DNA of 60,128 nucleotides from Minisyncoccota bacterium (GCA_020059915.1 JAGVBB010000002.1:1-60128); one strand, 5' to 3'. Positions 912 to 21,376 are shown, numbered from the stretch's first letter. Notes: generated by a model not told the origin, from the letters alone. Program-made: numbers and translations.

Positions 912-3635
912 TTATGAACACCCCCCCGAAGAACTTCCACACTGAAGACAGGTTTGGCAGGTGCCCGTCCGAACCATCATGCCTCCACATTTTTTACATA
1001 CCGTATCCCCTGCTGTTTGTCCCTTCTGATAAGTAGTAGTACTCTCTTTATATTCTTCCTTCTTCGTGGCAACAGAAACGGGTTCTTTTAATTCTCTTAT
1101 CCCCATGTGTTCTTCTCCAATTACTGGATTCATACCAAATTCGGAAAGATCATCCACTGAAAGAAAGCGCAATGAAAGATATCTAAAAATATAGTCGGCA
1201 ATACTTGTCGCAATTTTAATGTTTGGATTTTCAGTAAATCCAGCTGGCTCAAAACGTGTATAGATAAACTTTCGCGCAAACTCTCTAAATGGGACGCCAT
1301 ATTGCAATGCCATTGATACAGAAATCGCAAATGTATCAAGAAGTCCGGAAAGTGTGCTTCCTTGCTTTGACATACGAATAAAGATTTCTGCTAATGTTCC
1401 ATCCTCAAACATTCCATAAGTAAGGTATCCGCTATGTCCTGCTATAGAAAATTTATGAGTTTCAGAAACGCGTGTCATAGGAAGTTTTTTACGCAAAGGA
1501 ACTTCTGTGTGTCCCGCTGGTGTCTTCTTTTCTTTTTTCTCGGAAGTATTGAGTGGTTGTGTCGCTTTTGACCCATCGCGATATACCGCAAATGCTTTGA
1601 TCCCCAATTTCCACGCCATTGTGTACGATTCTGCAATTTCTTCAACACTTGTTTCGTGTGACATGTTGAACGTTTTTGAAATTGCTCCAGAAATAAATGG
1701 CTGTACTGCCGCAACCATTTTTACATGTCCTTTCCAAGAAATAGTTCGTGTTCCTTTCGCCGGACGAACAGCACAATCAAATACAGGAAGATGCGATTCT
1801 TTTAAGTGGGGTGCATTTTCAATTGTCCCCTCACTTGCTATCCATGCGACAATATCATTTTTTTCTGTTTCATTGTATCCAAGTTTTGTGAGAGCTGATT
1901 CAATACTCGTATTCACAATCTTCATCCATCCGCCACCAACAAGTTGTTTCATCTTCACAATAGAAAAATCTGGTTCAACACCCGTCGTATCACAATCCAT
2001 CATGAATGAAATTGTTCCCGTAGGAGCAAGCACAGTAACCTGCGCATTTCTATATCCCGATTTTTCTCCCATTTCATATGCCTCATCCCAAACAATTTCT
2101 GCCTCTTTTGCTAATTTTTTATCATCCAAATACATCGTATCAATTTCACGTGATGCCGTTTGATGCATTTTAATCACATTAAGCATTGGATCCTTGTTCA
2201 ATTCATATACTTCAAACGCTCCCATCCGCTTTGCAATTACCGAAGAAAATCTATACGCCTCTCCAGACATAAGTGAGGTAATTGCTCCTGCCCACGCTCG
2301 CCCCTCTTCTGAGTCATATGGAATTCCCTTAGTCATAAGGAGTGCCCCTAGATTGGCGTATCCAAGGCCTAATTGCCTCATTTTATGGGTGTTTTCCCCT
2401 ATTCTCTCTGTTGGATAGCTTGATGCATCTACGATAATGTCCTGGGCCAAAATAAACATATCAACTGCATGTCTAAACTCTTTTACCATAAACGATCCAT
2501 CTGCTCTCACAAATTTCATTAAGTTAATAGAAGCAAGGTTACACGCTGAATTATCAACATGCATATATTCTGAACATGGGTTTGATGCGTTGATGCGCCC
2601 AGAATTTGGACATGTGTGCCACTTATTAATTGTTGTATCAAATTGCACACCTGGATCTCCACACTCCCATGCGGCTTTTGCAATTTCTTGTAAAACATCT
2701 CGCGCTCTATATGTTTCTGCGATACGTTTTGATGTTACATATTTTGTTTGCCAATCTGCGTCTTTTTCAACAGCATCCATAAATTCATCGGAAATACGAA
2801 TAGAGTTGTTTGCATTCTGATATTGAATTGAATTCCATGCTTCATCATTCAAATCTCCCATGTTGTATCCCGCATCCATAAGTGCATGAATCTTTTTTTC
2901 TTCTTCTGATTTCACACGAATAAATTCCAAAATATCTGGATGATCAATATTTAACACAACCATCTTTGCTGCACGTCGTGTAGTGCCTCCAGATTTTATC
3001 ATTCCCGCAACAGAATCTGCTCCACGCATAAATGAAACCGGACCAGATGCATGTCCACCTTTAGAAAGTGATTCATTCTTTGCGCGTAATGAAGAAAGAT
3101 TTATTCCAGCACCAGAACCACCTTTGAAAATCATTCCCTCAGTTTTTATCCAATCAAGTATGGATCGCATATCGTCTTCAACAGAAAGAATGAAACATGC
3201 AGAACATTGTGGGCGCTCTTTTGTCCCCACATTAAACCAAACAGGACTATTAAACGATCCTCTTTGGTGTAATAGAATGTGTGTTAATTCATCTTCAAAA
3301 ATTTGTGCCTGTTTTATGTTTGTAAAATATCCAAACTTTTCCCCCCACGTACGAATTGTCTTTGCAACTCGTGTTATCATTTGTTTCAAACTTTCTTCAC
3401 GCTCTGGAGATCCTAATTTTCCACGAAAATATTTTGATACAGTAATATTTACTGCATTCGGAGACCAAGATTCAGGAAACTCGACATGCTCTTGTTTAAA
3501 TGAGGCAACACTCGCATCGCGAAAAACCCATTTCACTTCATCGAACGGATGTATGTTCTCTTTTGTAAACATACGACGAAATGCAATCTGACTTTTTGTT
3601 TTTACATTAATTTTGTCGAGTTTCTTTATTGCCAT
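912..3635 (-). CDS. nrdJ: Class II (B12-dependent) ribonucleotide reductase with TSCPD-like domain and C-terminal zinc ribbon
   Basis: FNSPVW, QCSACFI, ASNPCSEY, CNLASIN, APTGTIS and YRDGSK motifs; C-terminal CKKC..CLQC..GGCS. Confidence 0.95.
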   Translation of the reverse strand: MAIKKLDKINVKTKSQIAFRRMFTKENIHPFDEVKWVFRDASVASFKQEHVEFPESWSPNAVNITVSKYFRGKLGSPEREESLKQMITRVAKTIRTWGEKFGYFTNIKQAQIFEDELTHILLHQRGSFNSPVWFNVGTKERPQCSACFILSVEDDMRSILDWIKTEGMIFKGGSGAGINLSSLRAKNESLSKGGHASGPVSFMRGADSVAGMIKSGGTTRRAAKMVVLNIDHPDILEFIRVKSEEEKKIHALMDAGYNMGDLNDEAWNSIQYQNANNSIRISDEFMDAVEKDADWQTKYVTSKRIAETYRARDVLQEIAKAAWECGDPGVQFDTTINKWHTCPNSGRINASNPCSEYMHVDNSACNLASINLMKFVRADGSFMVKEFRHAVDMFILAQDIIVDASSYPTERIGENTHKMRQLGLGYANLGALLMTKGIPYDSEEGRAWAGAITSLMSGEAYRFSSVIAKRMGAFEVYELNKDPMLNVIKMHQTASREIDTMYLDDKKLAKEAEIVWDEAYEMGEKSGYRNAQVTVLAPTGTISFMMDCDTTGVEPDFSIVKMKQLVGGGWMKIVNTSIESALTKLGYNETEKNDIVAWIASEGTIENAPHLKESHLPVFDCAVRPAKGTRTISWKGHVKMVAAVQPFISGAISKTFNMSHETSVEEIAESYTMAWKLGIKAFAVYRDGSKATQPLNTSEKKEKKTPAGHTEVPLRKKLPMTRVSETHKFSIAGHSGYLTYGMFEDGTLAEIFIRMSKQGSTLSGLLDTFAISVSMALQYGVPFREFARKFIYTRFEPAGFTENPNIKIATSIADYIFRYLSLRFLSVDDLSEFGMNPVIGEEHMGIRELKEPVSVATKKEEYKESTTTYQKGQTAGDTVCKKCGGMMVRTGTCQTCLQCGSSSGGCS

Positions 3636-3776: not shown

Positions 3777-5000
3777 TTATTTCTTCTTTTTTCTTAAAAA
3801 TGCTGGAATTTCCCACTCCTCTTCTTCTTTTTCTTCCTGAGTCTTCTGTTTTTCTTCAGTGTTTTTCGTTTTTTCTTTTACTTCCTCCATTTTTGGGCTT
3901 TCATGATGCAAAACCTTCGGTATTTCTTCGGTCATAAATAATGTGGGGGCTATCATCCGTTGAGAAAATACTCCATTAAAGCCCGTTGCAATGACGGTCA
4001 CCTTAATACTCTTATCTTTTAGACTTCTATCATAATAAGATCCAAAAATAACACGAGCGTTTGCATCAAGTCCGCTAGAAACAGCGTTTGCAATCTCCTG
4101 TATTTCTGTCATTTTAATATCTTTTCCACCTGCAATGCTAAACAAGACACTCCGCGCTCCATCAATAGATATTTCAAGAAGCGGAGAATTAAGTGCTGAT
4201 TGTATTGCTTTTACCGAGCGCTCCTGTCCGGACCCGATACCGATGCCAATGAGTGTTGTTCCCGCGTCTTTCAATGTTGCTTTTACATCAGCAAAGTCAA
4301 CATTGATTAACCCTGGTGTATTGATAAGTTCTGCAAGTGATTGAACGGCATTTTTTAGTACCTCATCAATAAATCCAAATGCTCGCGCCATGGAAGTATC
4401 TCTATCAATCAAACTAAATATTCTATCGTTTGGGATTACCACCAATGCATCAACCTTATCCTTCAATCGCGTTATTCCCTCTTGGGCAATTTGTGCGCGT
4501 TGTGAACCCTCAAACATAAACGGCTTTGTAACAATCCCAATAGTAAGAATTCCTTTTTCTTTCGCAATCTCTGCAACAACCGGAGCACCACCGCTTCCTG
4601 TTCCTCCACCAAATCCCGCAGTAACAAAAACAATATCTGCACCATCAATAAGTTCACCAATTTCAGAACGATTTTCTTCCGCCGCCTGCTTTCCAATTTC
4701 TGGATTCATTCCAGCACCAAGTCCACGTGTTAATGCTTTTCCGATATATACCTTTCGATGAGCAGAAACAAAATCAAGATCTTGTGCATCAGTATTTACT
4801 GCAATAAACTCAACACCACGAACTCTTTCTGGAGATTCCATCATTCGTGAAATTGCATTTCCCCCACCACCACCAACACCAATAACTTTTATTTTTGCTG
4901 GTTGTATAGAAGATTTTTTTACTACTTTTTGTGATTTAGGAATTTTCTCCTCAATAATATTCTTTGCCGGTTTCTTTGATTTTGTTTCTTTTTTCTTCAT
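3777..5000 (-). CDS. ftsZ: Cell division GTPase FtsZ
   Basis: GVGGGGGN, GGGTGSG and INVDFAD motifs; C-terminal EIPAFLR. Confidence 0.98.
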   Translation of the reverse strand: MKKKETKSKKPAKNIIEEKIPKSQKVVKKSSIQPAKIKVIGVGGGGGNAISRMMESPERVRGVEFIAVNTDAQDLDFVSAHRKVYIGKALTRGLGAGMNPEIGKQAAEENRSEIGELIDGADIVFVTAGFGGGTGSGGAPVVAEIAKEKGILTIGIVTKPFMFEGSQRAQIAQEGITRLKDKVDALVVIPNDRIFSLIDRDTSMARAFGFIDEVLKNAVQSLAELINTPGLINVDFADVKATLKDAGTTLIGIGIGSGQERSVKAIQSALNSPLLEISIDGARSVLFSIAGGKDIKMTEIQEIANAVSSGLDANARVIFGSYYDRSLKDKSIKVTVIATGFNGVFSQRMIAPTLFMTEEIPKVLHHESPKMEEVKEKTKNTEEKQKTQEEKEEEEWEIPAFLRKKKK

Positions 5001-13975: not shown

Positions 13976-14323
13976 TTATAATTTTGAAATAAATACATTA
14001 AGCATTTTCATTACTTCTTCTAACTTCCCCTCAATACATCGAAACAACTCAATATCAATTAAACCAATACGTTTAGCAATTTCAAGTTGAGTATTAAGTT
14101 CTGATCCAGAGCCATATGCAATCCGAAGAAATTGTTTAAACTCCTTATCTATTCCTCGCATTCGTCCCTCTGCAATATTTGATGGGATAGAAACAGCACA
14201 TCTTCTCATTTGTGAAACTAGACCAAACATCTCACTCCTTGGAAATTTTTCTGTGATTACATACACATCAGAGACAATGTCCATACTCCGCTGCCAAATT
14301 AAAAGATCTTTGTATGATTTCAT
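13976..14323 (-). CDS. Four-helix-bundle protein (23S rRNA IVS protein-like family)
   Basis: SYKDLLIWQ, FPRSEMFGLVSQMRRCAVSIPSNIAEG, GSGSELNTQL. Confidence 0.93.
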   Translation of the reverse strand: MKSYKDLLIWQRSMDIVSDVYVITEKFPRSEMFGLVSQMRRCAVSIPSNIAEGRMRGIDKEFKQFLRIAYGSGSELNTQLEIAKRIGLIDIELFRCIEGKLEEVMKMLNVFISKL

Positions 14324-15406: not shown

Positions 15407-16735
15407 ATGGGAGTACGAAAAAAGACCCTATTGCTTATCGGAGATGCATGTATGCTCTATGGGGCGCTGGCACTGGCGCTTGTCGTTCGCTATTGGGATA
15501 TATCCTCATTTCCTGAACAGTGGACAAAGCACCTACTTCCCTTCTCCGTTATATTTCCTTTTTGGCTTCTTATTTTCTATTGGAACGATCTTTATCGATT
15601 CAAAGCACTTCGCGATCGTCGACTTTTATTAAAATCTCTTTTTCGTGCAATACTCCTTGCGGTGTTGGGATCGGTACTGTTGTTTTATCTGTTCCCTGGA
15701 TTTTTCGGAGTTAATCCAAAAACAAATCTTTTCGTTCTTGGTATTTCTTCATTTTTTGTTTTATATATTTGGCGCGCACGCATACTTTCTTTGTTTGTAT
15801 CACGCGCAACAAATATCATACTTCTCGGAAATTCAAACAAAACACAAGAATTGTGTGCGTTTCTTGAAAGCAATCCACACGCAGGATTCCGTGTCGCGGA
15901 CACTATTACATCAGAAAAAGATTATTCATTAGAACGAATAAAGAATGATATAGAAAAAACAAACGCTCGACTCATTGTTGTGGAAAAACATTTTGCGAAC
16001 AATATGGAGTTTGTCCGATCACTCTACAAACTAATTCCCCTTGAAGTATCTATAATGCAGTTTTCTGATTTTTATGAGGTGATTTTCGAAAAAGAGCCAC
16101 TCGAAGAATTGGGAGAGGACTGGTTTGTTCAAAACATATCGGCGCGACGCCCCATGTATGACAGCACAAAACGAATTGTGGATATTGTATGTTCGCTCTG
16201 TTTTGGAATTATCATGATCGCACCATGGATAATAATTGCTATTCTTGTGAAACTCAGTTCGCGCGGACCAGTCATCTACAAGCAAACGAGGATTGGAAAA
16301 AATGGAGAATTGTTTACTATCTATAAATTCCGCACGATGCACGTAGATTCAGAAAAGAATGGTCCACAATGGTCTTCTGTGGAACATGATCCAAGAGTAA
16401 CCGCGCTTGGAAAGGTACTCCGCCACACACACCTTGATGAAACACCACAGTTTTGGAATATTCTCAAAGGAGACTGCTCTTTTGTTGGTCCACGTCCAGA
16501 ACGCCCAGAGTTTGTCTCTGTTCTCCAAAAAGATATTCCATTTTATGAAATGCGACACATCGTTCGTCCGGGACTCGCGGGTTGGGCACAAACAAATTAT
16601 AAATATGGATCTTCTATTGAAGATGCAAAAGAAAAGCTTGCATACGATATCTATTACATTCGCTCACGATCTCTTATGACCGATCTCTTTATTGTCATTC
16701 GTACTATCAAGCACATATTTGTAAAACTCATCTAA
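15407..16735 (+). CDS. Polyprenyl glycosylphosphotransferase (initiating sugar transferase)
   Basis: 4 N-terminal TMs; KRIVDI, YKFRTM, DPRVT, LDETPQ, SFVGPRPERP, VRPGLAGWAQ. Confidence 0.95.
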   Translation: MGVRKKTLLLIGDACMLYGALALALVVRYWDISSFPEQWTKHLLPFSVIFPFWLLIFYWNDLYRFKALRDRRLLLKSLFRAILLAVLGSVLLFYLFPGFFGVNPKTNLFVLGISSFFVLYIWRARILSLFVSRATNIILLGNSNKTQELCAFLESNPHAGFRVADTITSEKDYSLERIKNDIEKTNARLIVVEKHFANNMEFVRSLYKLIPLEVSIMQFSDFYEVIFEKEPLEELGEDWFVQNISARRPMYDSTKRIVDIVCSLCFGIIMIAPWIIIAILVKLSSRGPVIYKQTRIGKNGELFTIYKFRTMHVDSEKNGPQWSSVEHDPRVTALGKVLRHTHLDETPQFWNILKGDCSFVGPRPERPEFVSVLQKDIPFYEMRHIVRPGLAGWAQTNYKYGSSIEDAKEKLAYDIYYIRSRSLMTDLFIVIRTIKHIFVKLI

Positions 16736-17433
16736 TCTCTCCGCGGATGTAACAACCTATACCAGGCATAACATACAAGTTGTCCCGCAAATAAAAAATA
16801 TTCTTGGATGGAAAGTTTCGATGCGCTATGTGTTCGCATACGAAATGTAAACGGGAATTCCTGAATTGATCTCCATGTTCCCTTTACTAATATCTCAAAT
16901 AAAATTTTATATCCCTTTGTTTCAAGCGTTATTCCATGAATAACACTTTTCTTAAACATAAAATATCCGCTCAGTGGGTCATTTGATCCGGAGATCATTT
17001 TTGACATTCCAACGCCAACTCGTGAAGTAAGCTTTCTCCACCACTTCCAATCTTCTACCTCACTTCCCTCTGCAAACCTACTACCAATGACAATATCGTG
17101 TGTATCAAGTGCACGAATCATATCATTAAGGATTGTCGGGTCATGACTAAGGTCTGCGTCCATCACTCCAAGATATTCACGTTTTGATTGTTTGAATCCC
17201 TCAATCACCGCACTTCCTAGCCCCAATTTTCCGGAACGATGAATACATCGAATGGGATAGCTATTTTTTAAAGATTCAATAATGCCTCCCGTTCCATCGG
17301 GGGAATTGTCATCAACAAAAATAAATTCAATATCTGCAATTGTTGTATCAACAATATTAAAAATTTCCTCAAGAAACGGCTGTATGTTCTTTGCCTCATT
17401 ATATGTGGGAACAATTATAGAAATCGATTTCAT
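16732..17433 (-). CDS. GT2 polyprenol monophosphomannose synthase-like
   Basis: IIVPTYNE, VDDNSPDGT, MDADLSH, DPLSG. Confidence 0.92.
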   Translation of the reverse strand: MKSISIIVPTYNEAKNIQPFLEEIFNIVDTTIADIEFIFVDDNSPDGTGGIIESLKNSYPIRCIHRSGKLGLGSAVIEGFKQSKREYLGVMDADLSHDPTILNDMIRALDTHDIVIGSRFAEGSEVEDWKWWRKLTSRVGVGMSKMISGSNDPLSGYFMFKKSVIHGITLETKGYKILFEILVKGTWRSIQEFPFTFRMRTHSASKLSIQEYFLFAGQLVCYAWYRLLHPRRD

Positions 17434-17837
17434 GTTGTTTTATTTTTAAATACCCACAAACGATACAAGGCAAAATTCCACAATGTTGAACAAGCAATAT
17501 TTGAAAGACGAACGAGAATATACTGAATTCCCAAAATGTCATGTCCCAACCACATCCACAAAATTGCGATTCCATAATTGATACCAAACACTATATATAA
17601 TCGCATCATCTCCCCGCCAATGGTCCCATGAGATTGAAACGTCCAATACTTATTGAATATATAAATATATATACCCATCAGTATTTGGTTTAATACAACG
17701 GAAAGTACCGGCGTCATACCAAAAAACTCTTTAAACACATAAAGAACTGCAACATCAAGTAGCGTCCCCGTACCCCCAACCACTACATATCGGAAAAACT
17801 GTTTACTTAATATATATTTTTTTATAGTTTCTTTCAT
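17430..17837 (-). CDS. GtrA-family membrane protein
   Basis: QFFRYVVVG, NKYWTF, WNFALYRLWVF. Confidence 0.9.
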   Translation of the reverse strand: MKETIKKYILSKQFFRYVVVGGTGTLLDVAVLYVFKEFFGMTPVLSVVLNQILMGIYIYIFNKYWTFQSHGTIGGEMMRLYIVFGINYGIAILWMWLGHDILGIQYILVRLSNIACSTLWNFALYRLWVFKNKTT

Positions 17838-17894
17838 CTAATTATTTAAATAATTCTCTAAACAAACAAATATTCTTTCATTTTTGGTGACACT

Positions 17895-18482
17895 TTATAT
17901 TGTTCCGTGTTTTGTGACCTCAAAGATATGAACAAATTTGGCAATGTTCATATTATGTAAATCTTTAACAAAGTCACTAGGAATTTTCTTTTTTGCGATC
18001 CACACACTTTGCTGTAACAAAGAGAATCCCATATTCACAAGTGCCTCTCGTAACCACTCTCGCTTTGTTTTAATCTTCTCAGGAATATCAAAGGCAACAA
18101 TAGTATATCGTCCAGAATTCTCACAAATATACTTTTTTCGATCACTAAGGTCATGCGTCGCTTGTACACTATCCTTCCCATCTTTGGTTATACTCCACAC
18201 TCCATTTCCAGCACGCTCGACCAATCCTTGTTGTTCCAAACTATATAACGTTTTGTATAGTCCAATTTTTGTATTCCGATCAAAATAAAATTTCTTTTTT
18301 GGCATCATATTTCCCGCAAAACGGCTCGTGTTCATCCTTCCTATTTTCACCGAACCAACATATGTTTGAGCCAATAAATCTGCAATACAAAATGCTCCTC
18401 CTTTTAGTACTTCAAGAACTAACAATGTCTTGGTTCCATATCTTTTTCTCCTTCGTTTTATTTCTCTTTGTGTCATATTCAT
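17895..18482 (-). CDS. PaaX-like protein (wHTH plus Cas2/ferredoxin-like C-terminus)
   Basis: LYSLEQQGLVE..WSITKDG helix/wing; IVAFDIPEKIKTKREWLREALVNMGFSLLQQSVWI; AGGAGG upstream. Confidence 0.8.
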   Translation of the reverse strand: MNMTQREIKRRRKRYGTKTLLVLEVLKGGAFCIADLLAQTYVGSVKIGRMNTSRFAGNMMPKKKFYFDRNTKIGLYKTLYSLEQQGLVERAGNGVWSITKDGKDSVQATHDLSDRKKYICENSGRYTIVAFDIPEKIKTKREWLREALVNMGFSLLQQSVWIAKKKIPSDFVKDLHNMNIAKFVHIFEVTKHGTI

Positions 18483-18536
18483 TGAATTATTCTTACGCCC
18501 TCCTTTTATTGCATCTACTTTATTATTATACCACTC

Positions 18537-18578
18537 TCTGTACCCCTATAACGACGGCCGTCGTTATAGGGGTACAGA
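18537..18578. promoter_or_regulatory. Perfect 42-bp palindrome over the -35 region of the PaaX-like gene
   Basis: tctgtacccctataacgacgg|ccgtcgttataggggtacaga; minus-strand TATAAT at 18525-18530. Confidence 0.8.
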
Positions 18579-18724
18579 TTGGGGTGTTGTTCCCACGTTG
18601 TTTGTTATATCTATACATTTGTATTGTTTTTATATTATTTTATTAACTTTCCACCACGCACCTAAGCAAGTCGCGCGTGCTTTTCAAATAGGCGCAAAAT
18701 CGATAGAATGGATGGGATACTACC

Positions 18725-20170
18725 ATGCTGGAAAAGATTAAATCCTTCCTGTTTGAAAACAAAACGGAAAAGCAAATAATTGCAAAAAATACCTTTTGGC
18801 TCACCTTCGGGATGATTGTGAGTCGTTCTTTGCGCGCCATCATGATCATGTATGCTGCGCGCGTCTTGGGAACCGAAGGATATGGGGCCTTTTCGTATGC
18901 CCTGAGCTTCGCCGGACTCTTTGGGGTATTTTCCGATATGGGACTTTCTGGAATTCTCACACGACAAATCGTGCAAGAGCCGGAACGGGAAAAAACATAT
19001 ATCTCAACAACATTCTTTCTTAAGCTCATAGCCCTCGTGGTAACGGTATCTATAACAATCTTTGTTGGCCCATACCTTACCAATGTTGCTGGAATCAAAG
19101 AACTTCTTTTTGCAATAAGCGTGCTTCTCGCATTTGATTCATTGCGCAATTTTGCATTCTCTATCGCGCGATCAAAAAATAAGATGCAGGTTGAATCAGG
19201 TGGAGGAATCATTACCGATGGACTTATCACACTTCTCGGCGTTGTTGCTCTTATCATTTTTCCATCAGCAAAATTCCTTGCCTATGGATATACAGCGGGG
19301 GTAATTATCGGAACCATTATTACATTCTTCATTCTCCGAAAAGACTTCATTGGTGTGTTTTCCCATTTCAATCCATCGATAGCGCGCACATTAATCGTCT
19401 CTTCTTGGCCATTTGCACTCATGGGGCTCTTTGGCGGTTTAATGATTAATATAGACACGTTGATCATCGGATGGTTCCGAACAGCTCATGATTTGGGATT
19501 GTATGGAGCAGCACAACGCCCCATTTTGCTTTTGTATGTTCTTCCTGGGTTGTTCTCGGTAAGCATGTTCCCCATTATCAGTAAATACTTTGCAGAAAAA
19601 AATATGGAGGCGATACGAATTCGTGTAGAAAAAGCAATTGCCATTACCATGCTCGGTGCATTGCCGTTCCTTGCGGGTGGCATTGTCGTCGGGGTTCCAC
19701 TCACCGTTTTTCTGTTTAGCGACGCATTCATCGGCGCGGCGCTCCCCCTCCAGATACTTCTCCTCACGCTCCCGTTAGTATTCGCTGGAACAATTATGGG
19801 AAATGCGATATTCGCCTGCCACAAACAAAAAGTGTTTATCGTTGCATATGGAAGTGGTGCAGTCGCAAACATCATCCTTGACCTTCTTCTTATTCCAAAA
19901 TATGGAGTGGTGGGATCGGCGTTCGCTACGCTTGTTTCGCAGGCATTTTCGAACGGATGGCTTTGGATATATACCAGAAAAATGATTCACTTTAAATTAT
20001 TTGCTCCAGCAAAAAAAATCGCCATAGCGTCTCTCGGTATGGCAATTGTGTGCTTGGTCTTTTCTCTATTTTCTCCACACGTACTCGTTACTATAATGGT
20101 TGGTGGAATAACGTACGTTTCACTTTTATTCATCTTAAAAGAACCACTCGTGGAGGGTCTACTCAACTAA
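18725..20170 (+). CDS. Wzx-type flippase
   Basis: QIIAKNTFWL, LGTEGYGAFSYA, SDMGL, HDLGLYGAA; many TMs. Confidence 0.92.
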   Translation: MLEKIKSFLFENKTEKQIIAKNTFWLTFGMIVSRSLRAIMIMYAARVLGTEGYGAFSYALSFAGLFGVFSDMGLSGILTRQIVQEPEREKTYISTTFFLKLIALVVTVSITIFVGPYLTNVAGIKELLFAISVLLAFDSLRNFAFSIARSKNKMQVESGGGIITDGLITLLGVVALIIFPSAKFLAYGYTAGVIIGTIITFFILRKDFIGVFSHFNPSIARTLIVSSWPFALMGLFGGLMINIDTLIIGWFRTAHDLGLYGAAQRPILLLYVLPGLFSVSMFPIISKYFAEKNMEAIRIRVEKAIAITMLGALPFLAGGIVVGVPLTVFLFSDAFIGAALPLQILLLTLPLVFAGTIMGNAIFACHKQKVFIVAYGSGAVANIILDLLLIPKYGVVGSAFATLVSQAFSNGWLWIYTRKMIHFKLFAPAKKIAIASLGMAIVCLVFSLFSPHVLVTIMVGGITYVSLLFILKEPLVEGLLN

Positions 20171-21376
20171 CTCTTTTATTTTATTCAGAACAACTTCTGG
20201 TTGTGTGTCTGTTTTAAATACAGAAATTTTTTCATTGAGGAGTGGCACCATACACCGCGCACTCATTGAACTCAACGGAGACGAAAATCCTTTCAAATAA
20301 TAGGCGGACGTATTTATTAGGCAAATAGTTTTCGTTTTAACAGCAAGAGCAAGATGTGTTGGAAACGAATCTATACATAGGAGCAACTTTGCCTTCTTAT
20401 ACAAACTTCCTAATTGTGGGAGTGTTGCATCGGTCACTATGAAAACCGATTCTTGCTCTATTCCATTCACAATCTCTTCTATATATGTTCTTTGTGAAGG
20501 GATCCCTGTGAACACAATAATGCCTCCCCCATTTCTATATTGAGCAACAACATCTCGCCAATATTCCTTTGGCCACTCACGATCTTTATCAAACGAAACA
20601 GGGGCACACACTATATATGGTTCGTTTTGTAGTTCTTCTAACTCTCCGCGATTAAAAATAGAATCATCAAAATTTTCAAAAACTGGCCCAAAGAAAAAAT
20701 CTTCTCTGCTTATTCCCAATGGAAGTAAAAGATTCATATAGTTTTCCCATTCCTCGTCCTTGAGATTATATTCCGCCCAATAATCAGCAAGAAAACTCTG
20801 TTCAGAGATATCAAAAGAAATAAGATGTTTTGGTTTTATGAGTTTCCACCATATATTTGAGCTGGGAACAAACGCGCGTCCATTAATCACATAATCATAA
20901 TTTTCTCCCTTGAGTTTCCCGATTACTTCTTGATTATTTTTTAGTGCTTGAGCTATTGAAGTTTTTGATCCTTCCTTTCTCCCCGCAATAAAATGAAGGG
21001 CGACTTCGTCCCAAAAATAAATATTCCGTATATATTGATTGTTTTTTAAAATCGCTGACGTTTTTGGATTTACTAAATAATCAATTTCGCATTCTGGATA
21101 CTTTTTTTTCAAAATAGGAAGCAAAAATGTGGAAAACAACACGTCTCCAAATTGATCAATGCGAACAATGAGAACTTTCTGTGGGTTAATAAATTTCTTT
21201 TTAAAACATCGCCCCCAAAAGAAAAGGATGTCCCCCACCAATTCCAATGGAATTTCAACAACAAGAAACACAATTTTTATCCATTTCACAATCGTCTTTT
21301 GAATTGAAAACTTCTTGCGCACTATATTTGATCGCAATGAAATAAACAAACTCTTATATTTTCTAATAAATTCCAT
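20159..21376 (-). CDS. GT9 (heptosyltransferase-like) glycosyltransferase
   Basis: KVLIVRIDQFGDVL, REWPKEYW, CIDSFPTHLALA. Confidence 0.88.
   Translation of the reverse strand: MEFIRKYKSLFISLRSNIVRKKFSIQKTIVKWIKIVFLVVEIPLELVGDILFFWGRCFKKKFINPQKVLIVRIDQFGDVLFSTFLLPILKKKYPECEIDYLVNPKTSAILKNNQYIRNIYFWDEVALHFIAGRKEGSKTSIAQALKNNQEVIGKLKGENYDYVINGRAFVPSSNIWWKLIKPKHLISFDISEQSFLADYWAEYNLKDEEWENYMNLLLPLGISREDFFFGPVFENFDDSIFNRGELEELQNEPYIVCAPVSFDKDREWPKEYWRDVVAQYRNGGGIIVFTGIPSQRTYIEEIVNGIEQESVFIVTDATLPQLGSLYKKAKLLLCIDSFPTHLALAVKTKTICLINTSAYYLKGFSSPLSSMSARCMVPLLNEKISVFKTDTQPEVVLNKIKELVE

Follow-up and report, generated by a model that had tools for sequence, protein, structure and literature searches.

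The window analysed here is a 60,128-nucleotide (nt) stretch of DNA from a Minisyncoccota bacterium (GCA_020059915.1, JAGVBB010000002.1:1-60128), an ultra-small bacterium (Parcubacteria) with a genome of 686 kb. On its minus strand resides a short gene, termed mini-PaaX below, that encodes a predicted DNA-binding protein related to the repressor PaaX, and upstream of this gene is a perfect 42-bp palindrome that is the likely operator of the gene. A preliminary description, made from the sequence alone, had placed the gene as an interruption in a run of GtrA and flippase genes, and it does sit between a GtrA gene (17430-17837) and a flippase gene (18725-20170). The gene and its site comprise the following features:

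17895-18482, minus strand: mini-PaaX gene, 195 amino acids (aa) from the first ATG (open reading frame (ORF) listing, Pfam, AlphaFold2 model, Foldseek)
18499-18505, minus strand: Shine-Dalgarno-like AAGGAGG, 16 nt from the first ATG (read from the sequence)
18525-18533, minus strand: extended -10 box TGgTATAAT of the predicted mini-PaaX promoter (read from the sequence as a consensus match)
18537-18578, no strand: perfect 42-bp palindrome, putative operator and 'U' site of the family (base-by-base reading, repeat finder, folding)
18554-18561, no strand: family-conserved dyad core ACGG/CCGT, half-site positions 1-4 (cross-locus site comparison)
18568-18575, no strand: putative outer-arm specificity segment AGGGGTAC, half-site positions 11-18 (comparison of U and D sites)
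18540-18547, no strand: mirror copy of the outer arm, GTACCCCT

The palindrome is loop-free and free of mismatches, as first described, with its dyad between 18557 and 18558. The repeat finder reports 28-nt arms at 89%, 0 nt apart, that enclose perfect 21-nt arms. The half-site occurs twice in the window, both times within the palindrome (0 matches in 100 shuffles), and is unique across the 686-kb genome. As single-stranded DNA, the palindrome is predicted to fold with an energy of -22.6 kcal/mol (z = -9.3). A second public assembly (GCA_003599675.1, contig QZJB01000017.1) contains an identical 6.6-kb segment, palindrome included.

The palindrome had been reported to lie just upstream of a minus-strand TATAAT and to cover the expected -35 position, and this geometry holds. 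TATAAT occupies 18530-18525, a TG at 18533-18532 makes it an extended -10 box, and six bases (18531-18536) separate the box from the palindrome. With a 17-nt spacer, the -35 position (18553-18548) lies within the palindrome, where the sequence, CGTTAT, is no -35 hexamer, and for this reason a standard -35/-10 scan calls no promoter at this upstream site. The missing hexamer, with the palindrome in its place, is what an extended -10 promoter would show if an operator took up its upstream half. The AAGGAGG that had been called a strong Shine-Dalgarno sequence is present (18505-18499), but its spacing is poor: the first ATG (18482) is 16 nt away and the second, where the public gene call of 193 aa begins, 22 nt away; the orthologues have just AAAGAAAA ahead of the ATG. 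Control of the divergent flippase gene by the palindrome is unlikely because the flippase promoter (TTTTCA-17-TAGAAT, 18681-18709) is about 100 nt away. A search of window positions 16500-20500 against Rfam gives no match.

Structural modeling and homology searches indicate that mini-PaaX consists of a probable winged-helix DNA-binding domain fused to a Cas2-fold domain. In the AlphaFold2 model, which was built on 36 sequences, the C-terminal domain has a predicted local distance difference test (pLDDT) score above 90 and adopts a beta-alpha-beta-beta-alpha-beta ferredoxin fold over residues 121-190; the winged helix comprises helices at 17-27, 33-41 and 69-84 and a wing at 88-98. Residues 124-193 match the Pfam family PaaX_M (PF20803), the Cas2-like domain in the middle of PaaX, with E = 1.3e-14 and 54.5 bits, the cut-off being 24; in mini-PaaX, the Cas2-fold domain covers approximately residues 121-190. 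The motif that the preliminary description had assigned to PaaX C-terminal domains belongs instead to this middle domain, while the likeness it saw to the Cas2/VapD fold is borne out by profile and Foldseek comparisons. No PaaX_C match is found by Pfam or in the model, and the protein stops right behind the Cas2-like domain, at residue 195. The Pfam model of the PaaX N terminus is likewise unmatched, and Mrr_N is matched weakly. Scores against the NCBIfam models for PaaX (TIGR02277, 25.7 bits, cut-off 264.55) and Cas2 (TIGR01573, 23.1 bits, cut-off 24.5, covering residues 125-161 only) fall below threshold. A known defence system or phage protein was considered and set aside, as PADLOC yields weak Cas2 matches only and PHROGs a weak 'transcriptional regulator' match.

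Foldseek places E. coli PaaX (8A39, E = 6e-4) at the top of its PDB matches, ahead of, in turn, PadR/MarR winged helices, the PaaX-like structures 3KFW and 3L09, and Cas2 chains from Cas1-Cas2 complexes. A PDB search with the single sequence of the C-terminal domain gives no match; the profile of this domain aligns best with true Cas2 and VapD proteins (6jhz, 8ia4, 3exc; VapD 3ui3), which brings FD132 onto the catalytic Asp of Cas2 and matches Q157-x-S-V-W with the Q-x-S-V-Y/F motif of Cas2. The Cas2 catalytic-position residue Asp132, which lies directly behind the strand 121-131 in the model, and Glu135 are invariant among mini-PaaX homologues. A link to CRISPR was rejected: Cas1 (PF01867) is absent from the whole genome (estimated 100% complete; control genomes positive), and no CRISPR-like array was found in it, which extends to the genome what had been stated for the window.

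Mini-PaaX belongs to a large family: after clustering at 50% identity, 5,743 representatives match at E <= 1e-3, and 3,499 still do at E <= 1e-10. Of the 5,743, the best 150 are nearly all 180-215 aa long. Homologues occupy 53 of 81 related genomes, as many as 10 of them in a genome of approximately 0.5 Mb, and paralogues in one genome share 32-75% identity.

Long palindromes are a trait of this family, as a comparison of homologues proposed in the preliminary description bears out. The comparison covers 93 homologue loci, all oriented on the gene (a scan with the single protein yields 25 loci), and counts palindromes with at least 14 matched arm pairs, gene ends being taken as within 170 nt. 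Palindromes occur at 3.18 per kb at gene ends versus 0.08 per kb in far flanks, a 40-fold enrichment. Where both flanks are available (85 loci), palindromes reside on both sides of the gene at 33 loci, upstream only at 12 (the arrangement seen in the window) and downstream only at 12; the remaining 28 have none, and 16 of these are among the most distant homologues. The palindromes have a median length of 36 bp, and 53 of 99 show neither a mismatch nor a loop; the median distances are 29 nt from palindrome to start codon and 25 nt from stop codon to palindrome. Their centres read CGATCG (62), CGGCCG (11) or CGACCG/CGGTCG (11). The window locus fits the module, defined as a winged helix plus PaaX_M protein of about 160-220 aa with a long CG-centred palindrome within about 150 nt of the gene ends. 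A downstream palindrome is missing there; three of the four other orthologues carry one.

The anatomy of the site emerges from the upstream (U) and downstream (D) palindromes of the same locus, which were compared in 33 pairs. Half-site positions 5-10 hold 57 of the 79 positions that differ or are unpaired between U and D palindromes, whereas the two copies at a locus seldom differ at positions 1-4 and 11-18. Across loci, position 3 is an invariant G and position 2 is a C in 58 of 64 sites, and positions 11-18 are nearly random (information content 0.2-0.4 bits). Because the differences between U and D copies are concentrated in positions 5-10 while positions 11-18 vary across loci, the family site is, by this sequence comparison, bipartite: a family-wide core (x-C-G-x) at positions 1-4 is separated by a free linker at 5-10 from a locus-specific outer arm at 11-18. 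In the window palindrome, the linker between core and outer arm is CGTTAT.

Covariation between protein and site was measured as mutual information between protein columns and site positions, with phylogeny handled only by a count of clades. The core positions covary with residues 138 (z = 11.7), 143 and 158 (z = 9.2) of the Cas2-like domain, and none of the 146 protein columns reaches z >= 4 with the linker positions. The outer positions covary weakly (z = 4-5) with six residues of the winged helix, all in its helices 2 and 3 (40, 41, 68, 76, 78 and 81), and four columns of the Cas2-like domain (128, 133, 166 and 194) score as high with the outer positions as the winged-helix ones do. The preliminary description had suggested that palindromes would covary with the recognition helix of the winged helix-turn-helix; weak signals do occur there, but the strongest reside in the Cas2-like domain. 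Residue 158, in the motif LQ[K/Q]SVW, is Lys together with an A:T centre in 44 cases and Gln together with a G:C centre in 8. Gln158 appears in five separate clades on the tree, each time with a G:C or half-G:C centre, and the window protein (LLQQSVW, CGGCCG) and two further orthologues obey this rule. Similarly, R, K or S at residue 138 goes with T, C or G at half-site position 4.

Five orthologous loci were compared to place the module in its genus: the window, G001, G002, L099 (P0002, 64% identity) and L102 (P0005, 45% identity). All share a frame that consists of a flippase gene, a divergent mini-PaaX gene, a slot and a Bac_transf sugar transferase gene, and in all five a palindrome resides 5-10 nt upstream of TGnTATAAT or TATACT. 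This spacing is taken from the five orthologues only and not from the wider family, because TATAAT-like hexamers are common in AT-rich spacers. The palindrome sequence varies among the orthologous species through symmetric changes at the same place. A second ('D') palindrome, 3-23 nt past the stop codon, is found in the three loci with an empty slot (G001, G002 and L102) and is missing in both cargo-bearing loci; the downstream copies lack T-runs. In the window, the slot and its boundaries are as follows:

16732-17433, minus strand: GT2 glycosyltransferase gene (Pfam), in the slot where relatives carry the D palindrome
17430-17837, minus strand: GtrA-like flippase gene (Pfam), in the same slot
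16736-18724: whole insert between the Bac_transf gene (15407-16735, plus strand) and the flippase gene (18725-20170, plus strand) (junction comparison)

In L099, the closest sister lineage, the slot (2334-3307) is instead occupied by a RhuM-family gene and a short gene with a Fic domain, which have their own TATAAT. The 57-nt spacer between mini-PaaX and the GtrA gene in the window contains no terminator and no promoter call, and GtrA-GT2 is therefore probably co-transcribed with mini-PaaX from the palindrome-covered promoter.

In 17 genomes from other genera of the same family, the Bac_transf and flippase genes lie on the same strand with a gap of -8 to +73 nt, as compared with 854, 884 and 1,989 nt in the window's genus. 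Because the flanking genes abut in these other genera, the palindrome-gene-palindrome unit, which has the opposite orientation and brings a new flippase promoter, is by this comparison an insertion at an operon junction, and the uninterrupted junctions provide the empty sites for which the preliminary description had suggested a search. The mini-PaaX orthologues are 45-64% identical, comparable to the neighbouring genes (55-75%), and are syntenic in the five genomes, which argues that the insertion is old and has long been immobile. Recent transposition was rejected on the basis of this synteny and of the divergence among paralogues within genomes. The earlier suggestion of a one-gene mobile unit thus survives in the evolutionary sense of an insertion, but one that is old, syntenic within the genus and single-copy.

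The same junction in G021 (L110, C8; 1016-1500) has a different, 472-nt insert containing a small ORF that is GxxExxY- or PD-(D/E)xK-like by eye only, flanked by a perfect 33-nt inverted repeat, CTACGAAATACGAATTTTGTACGAATATACGAA. Small cassettes appear to favour the Bac_transf-flippase junction.

Overall, it seems probable (roughly 0.6) that mini-PaaX is a PaaX-like dimer that represses the promoter of its own gene by binding to the palindrome there. In such a mechanism, a mini-PaaX homodimer would occupy the 42-bp palindrome beside its gene, with the Cas2-fold dimer lying on the dyad and reading the ACGG/CCGT core. Gln158 would read the central G:C pair and residue 138 would read position 4, while the two winged helices would extend to the outer arms, some 11-18 bp off the centre. 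Self-repression is proposed because the bound palindrome would occupy the -35 and spacer region of the TGgTATAAT promoter, where the protein would block RNA polymerase. If the same promoter also drives the co-directional GtrA-GT2 pair, as is probable, the module may be the switch of a small glycan-modification operon. Historically, a palindrome-gene-palindrome unit would have been inserted in the ancestor of the genus between two genes of a conserved sugar-transferase-flippase operon, and the downstream palindrome would have been lost later in the window lineage, where the GtrA-GT2 cargo now sits. There is precedent for an operator of this kind: E. coli PaaX recognises TGATTC-N27-GAATCA (39 bp) and, by sterically hindering RNA polymerase, represses Px, the promoter of its own gene (PMC9493321), and both the 42-bp span and the positions of the outer arms fit this operator geometry. 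Of the two interpretations first offered for the locus, the autoregulatory operator is the better supported, with a palindrome just ahead of the -10 box in every orthologue.

Several points weigh against this mechanism. The Cas2-like domain of true PaaX has been described only as a dimerisation motif (PMC9493321), and base reading by a Cas2-like domain is without precedent. The linker is self-complementary though apparently unread by the protein, which half-site recognition does not predict, and the invariant Asp132 and Glu135 would be needless in a pure repressor. The covariation of the winged helix is weak and takes no account of kinship, and the -10 box is a consensus match. Finally, the mechanism does not account for the benefit of an autoregulator bracketed by its own sites.

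A selfish or mobile cassette offers another, rather unlikely, explanation. The Cas2 fold would then be a metal-dependent nuclease or strand-transferase that cuts or nicks at the palindrome dyad, possibly on extruded hairpins. On this comparably unlikely view, the palindromes would form the cis-ends of a one-gene element, and genes would be inserted and exchanged preferentially at them. Such an element would be in keeping with the insertion of the unit into a conserved operon junction and with the D-palindrome slot, which holds different cargo in two lineages and lacks the palindrome exactly there, while the three cargo-free orthologues keep theirs. However, the palindromes lie 24-125 nt inside the edges of the insert, and no target duplication is seen. 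The multiplicity of the family (up to 10 paralogues in a genome of about 0.5 Mb) and its patchy distribution over 53 of 81 genomes also suggest mobility, as do the orphan palindromes of G002, whose 162-nt direct repeats bracket a 2.25-kb four-gene block (described below). Yet no near-identical copies were found, the paralogues within a genome being only 32-75% identical, and the window genome has one gene copy and one palindrome; synteny in five genomes, with divergence like that of the neighbours, points to long immobility. Asp132 is invariant and aligned with the Cas2 catalytic Asp, and the palindromes are perfect even where the protein does not read them. Set against this, Cas1-Cas2 can do without the nuclease activity of Cas2, and PaaX, the homologue, acts as a repressor.

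Somewhat more doubtful is a combination in which the Cas2 fold reads bases on the palindrome dyad and also nicks, cuts or processes hairpins through Asp132 and Glu135, with the palindromes as cassette ends. A base-reading fold that also acts on DNA would explain the insertion into the operon, the exchange of cargo at the D slot and the perfection of the palindromes at unread positions.

An equally doubtful alternative is that the functional form of the palindrome is a nucleic-acid structure, either a DNA cruciform or hairpin recognised by the protein, or an RNA stem-loop by which downstream copies terminate or stabilise transcripts. Linker positions often differ between the two palindromes of a locus, yet each palindrome stays self-complementary. 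In all, the paired sites display 38 doubly compensated differences and 41 unpaired positions, with about 2 compensated differences expected by chance, and pairing at the linker positions, which the protein does not read, is approximately 93%. Either intrastrand pairing in a hairpin or cruciform therefore matters, or template-switch correction keeps the palindromes perfect. Quasipalindrome correction by template switching during replication is a known mutational bias that can maintain long perfect palindromes without selection, and it thus weakens the argument from structure. The central 2-4 nt may be non-complementary (CGACCG, CGGTCG), as in a hairpin loop, and the predicted DNA hairpin of the window palindrome is very stable. 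An RNA hairpin is disfavoured because sense-strand mismatches in imperfect palindromes are not biased towards G:T (20, versus 15 A:C; p = 0.5) and because the upstream copy sits 5' of the -10 box, as it does in the five orthologues; nor do the downstream copies have T-runs. In addition, the PaaX precedent is a linear duplex operator (PMC9493321).

A fold-back assembly artefact or a functionless chance palindrome is highly improbable: no public reads for the region were found, but the second assembly and the comparative data exclude an artefact, since four other assemblies have orthologous palindromes of different sequence at the same place, palindromes are 40-fold enriched at homologue gene ends and covary with protein residues, and the half-site had no match in 100 shuffles.

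Further palindromes were noted in G002 and in the window's own genome. At L105 (G002:C13), two 162-nt direct repeats that are 98% identical (2023-2184 and 4273-4434) each contain an orphan palindrome, TGTTAATGTATACCGGCGGTCGCCGGTATACATTAACA, which resembles the mini-PaaX palindrome of G001 and not that of G002. Each orphan palindrome is followed by two small hairpins and a terminator-like stem, and an Rfam search of L105 gave nothing meaningful. Between the repeats lie 2.25 kb with genes for a YgaP-like membrane protein, a glutaredoxin, an ArsR regulator and a hypothetical protein. In the window's own genome, contig C2 (166168-166991) contains a gene of 240 aa (166210-166932, minus strand) between perfect palindromes of 40 and 42 bp that have a common outer arm, ATTGGTCCAGC. 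The layout of a gene between palindromes is like that of mini-PaaX, but the protein is unrelated, with a helix-turn-helix and a LAGLIDADG-like GLGIGLYWGEGT motif and no Pfam family. The other long palindromes of this genome (10486-10527, 41794-41825, 49224-49254 and 53299-53337 in the window, and elsewhere) are mostly bidirectional terminators with an A-run, GC-stem and T-run, several of which have a common stem of the CCCGCCAGT...ACTGGCGGG type. Elsewhere in the window, the ORF at 13976-14323 (minus strand) belongs to the 23S rRNA intervening-sequence protein family (PF05635, E = 1.6e-37); it is a free-standing four-helix-bundle gene, typical of hairpin cassettes of the candidate phyla radiation (CPR).

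CPR bacteria (Patescibacteria) have very few recognisable regulators, and up to ten orthogonal protein-site pairs in a half-megabase genome would be a major part of their repertoire for regulation or genome dynamics. The family is labelled 'hypothetical protein' in every annotation source, and no publication on it or on the module was found in the literature. The rules that relate residue 158 to the centre and residue 138 to position 4 may amount to a natural specificity code that is open to swap tests. If the Cas2 fold does read bases, this would be a new use of the fold and would bear on the relation between Cas2 and PaaX. At the window locus itself, what is new is the unit as an insertion and the different cargo (GtrA and GT2 versus RhuM and Fic) at the D-palindrome slot; the locus also suggests how a GtrA/GT2 glycan-modification pair could be switched in an unculturable organism.

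The closest structural relative of mini-PaaX is PaaX, the phenylacetyl-CoA-responsive repressor (E. coli W, 8A39; Jannaschia, 3L09; M. tuberculosis Rv0674, 3KFW). Mini-PaaX has the Cas2-like domain (PF20803) of PaaX, and its model places a winged helix ahead of it, in the domain order of PaaX; the PaaX operator, like the putative one of mini-PaaX, is a long inverted repeat with distant half-sites at the protein's own promoter. Mini-PaaX differs in lacking the PaaX_C ligand domain (195 aa versus about 305 aa), in its continuous, perfect palindrome, whose conserved CG-rich dyad core shows covariation with the Cas2-like domain, in the second palindrome that most relatives have past the stop codon, and in the multi-copy occurrence of the family in CPR genomes.

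With Cas2 and VapD, mini-PaaX shares the ferredoxin-like beta-alpha-beta-beta-alpha-beta fold, the FD..P...R..L...GF...Q.SV[WYF] motifs and the Asp at the catalytic position. In Cas1-Cas2-prespacer complexes, the Cas2 dimer lies on the middle of duplex DNA. Unlike Cas2, the mini-PaaX domain is fused to a winged helix and occurs in a genome without cas1 or a CRISPR array, and it is proposed to read bases sequence-specifically, whereas Cas2 binds DNA non-specifically.

A third comparison is with REP/REPIN sequences and their RAYT proteins (REPtrons), in which a single gene is likewise flanked by its own palindromic repeat, repeat and protein co-evolve, and orphan copies of the palindrome occur in some genomes, as in G002. 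Mini-PaaX is unrelated to the Y1/HUH transposases, since Pfam, NCBIfam and fold searches return only PaaX_M, Cas2 and winged helices. There are no dispersed copies in the window genome, orphan copies being seen only in G002, and the mini-PaaX palindromes are much longer and perfect, with an upstream copy that is positioned on the promoter in the manner of an operator.

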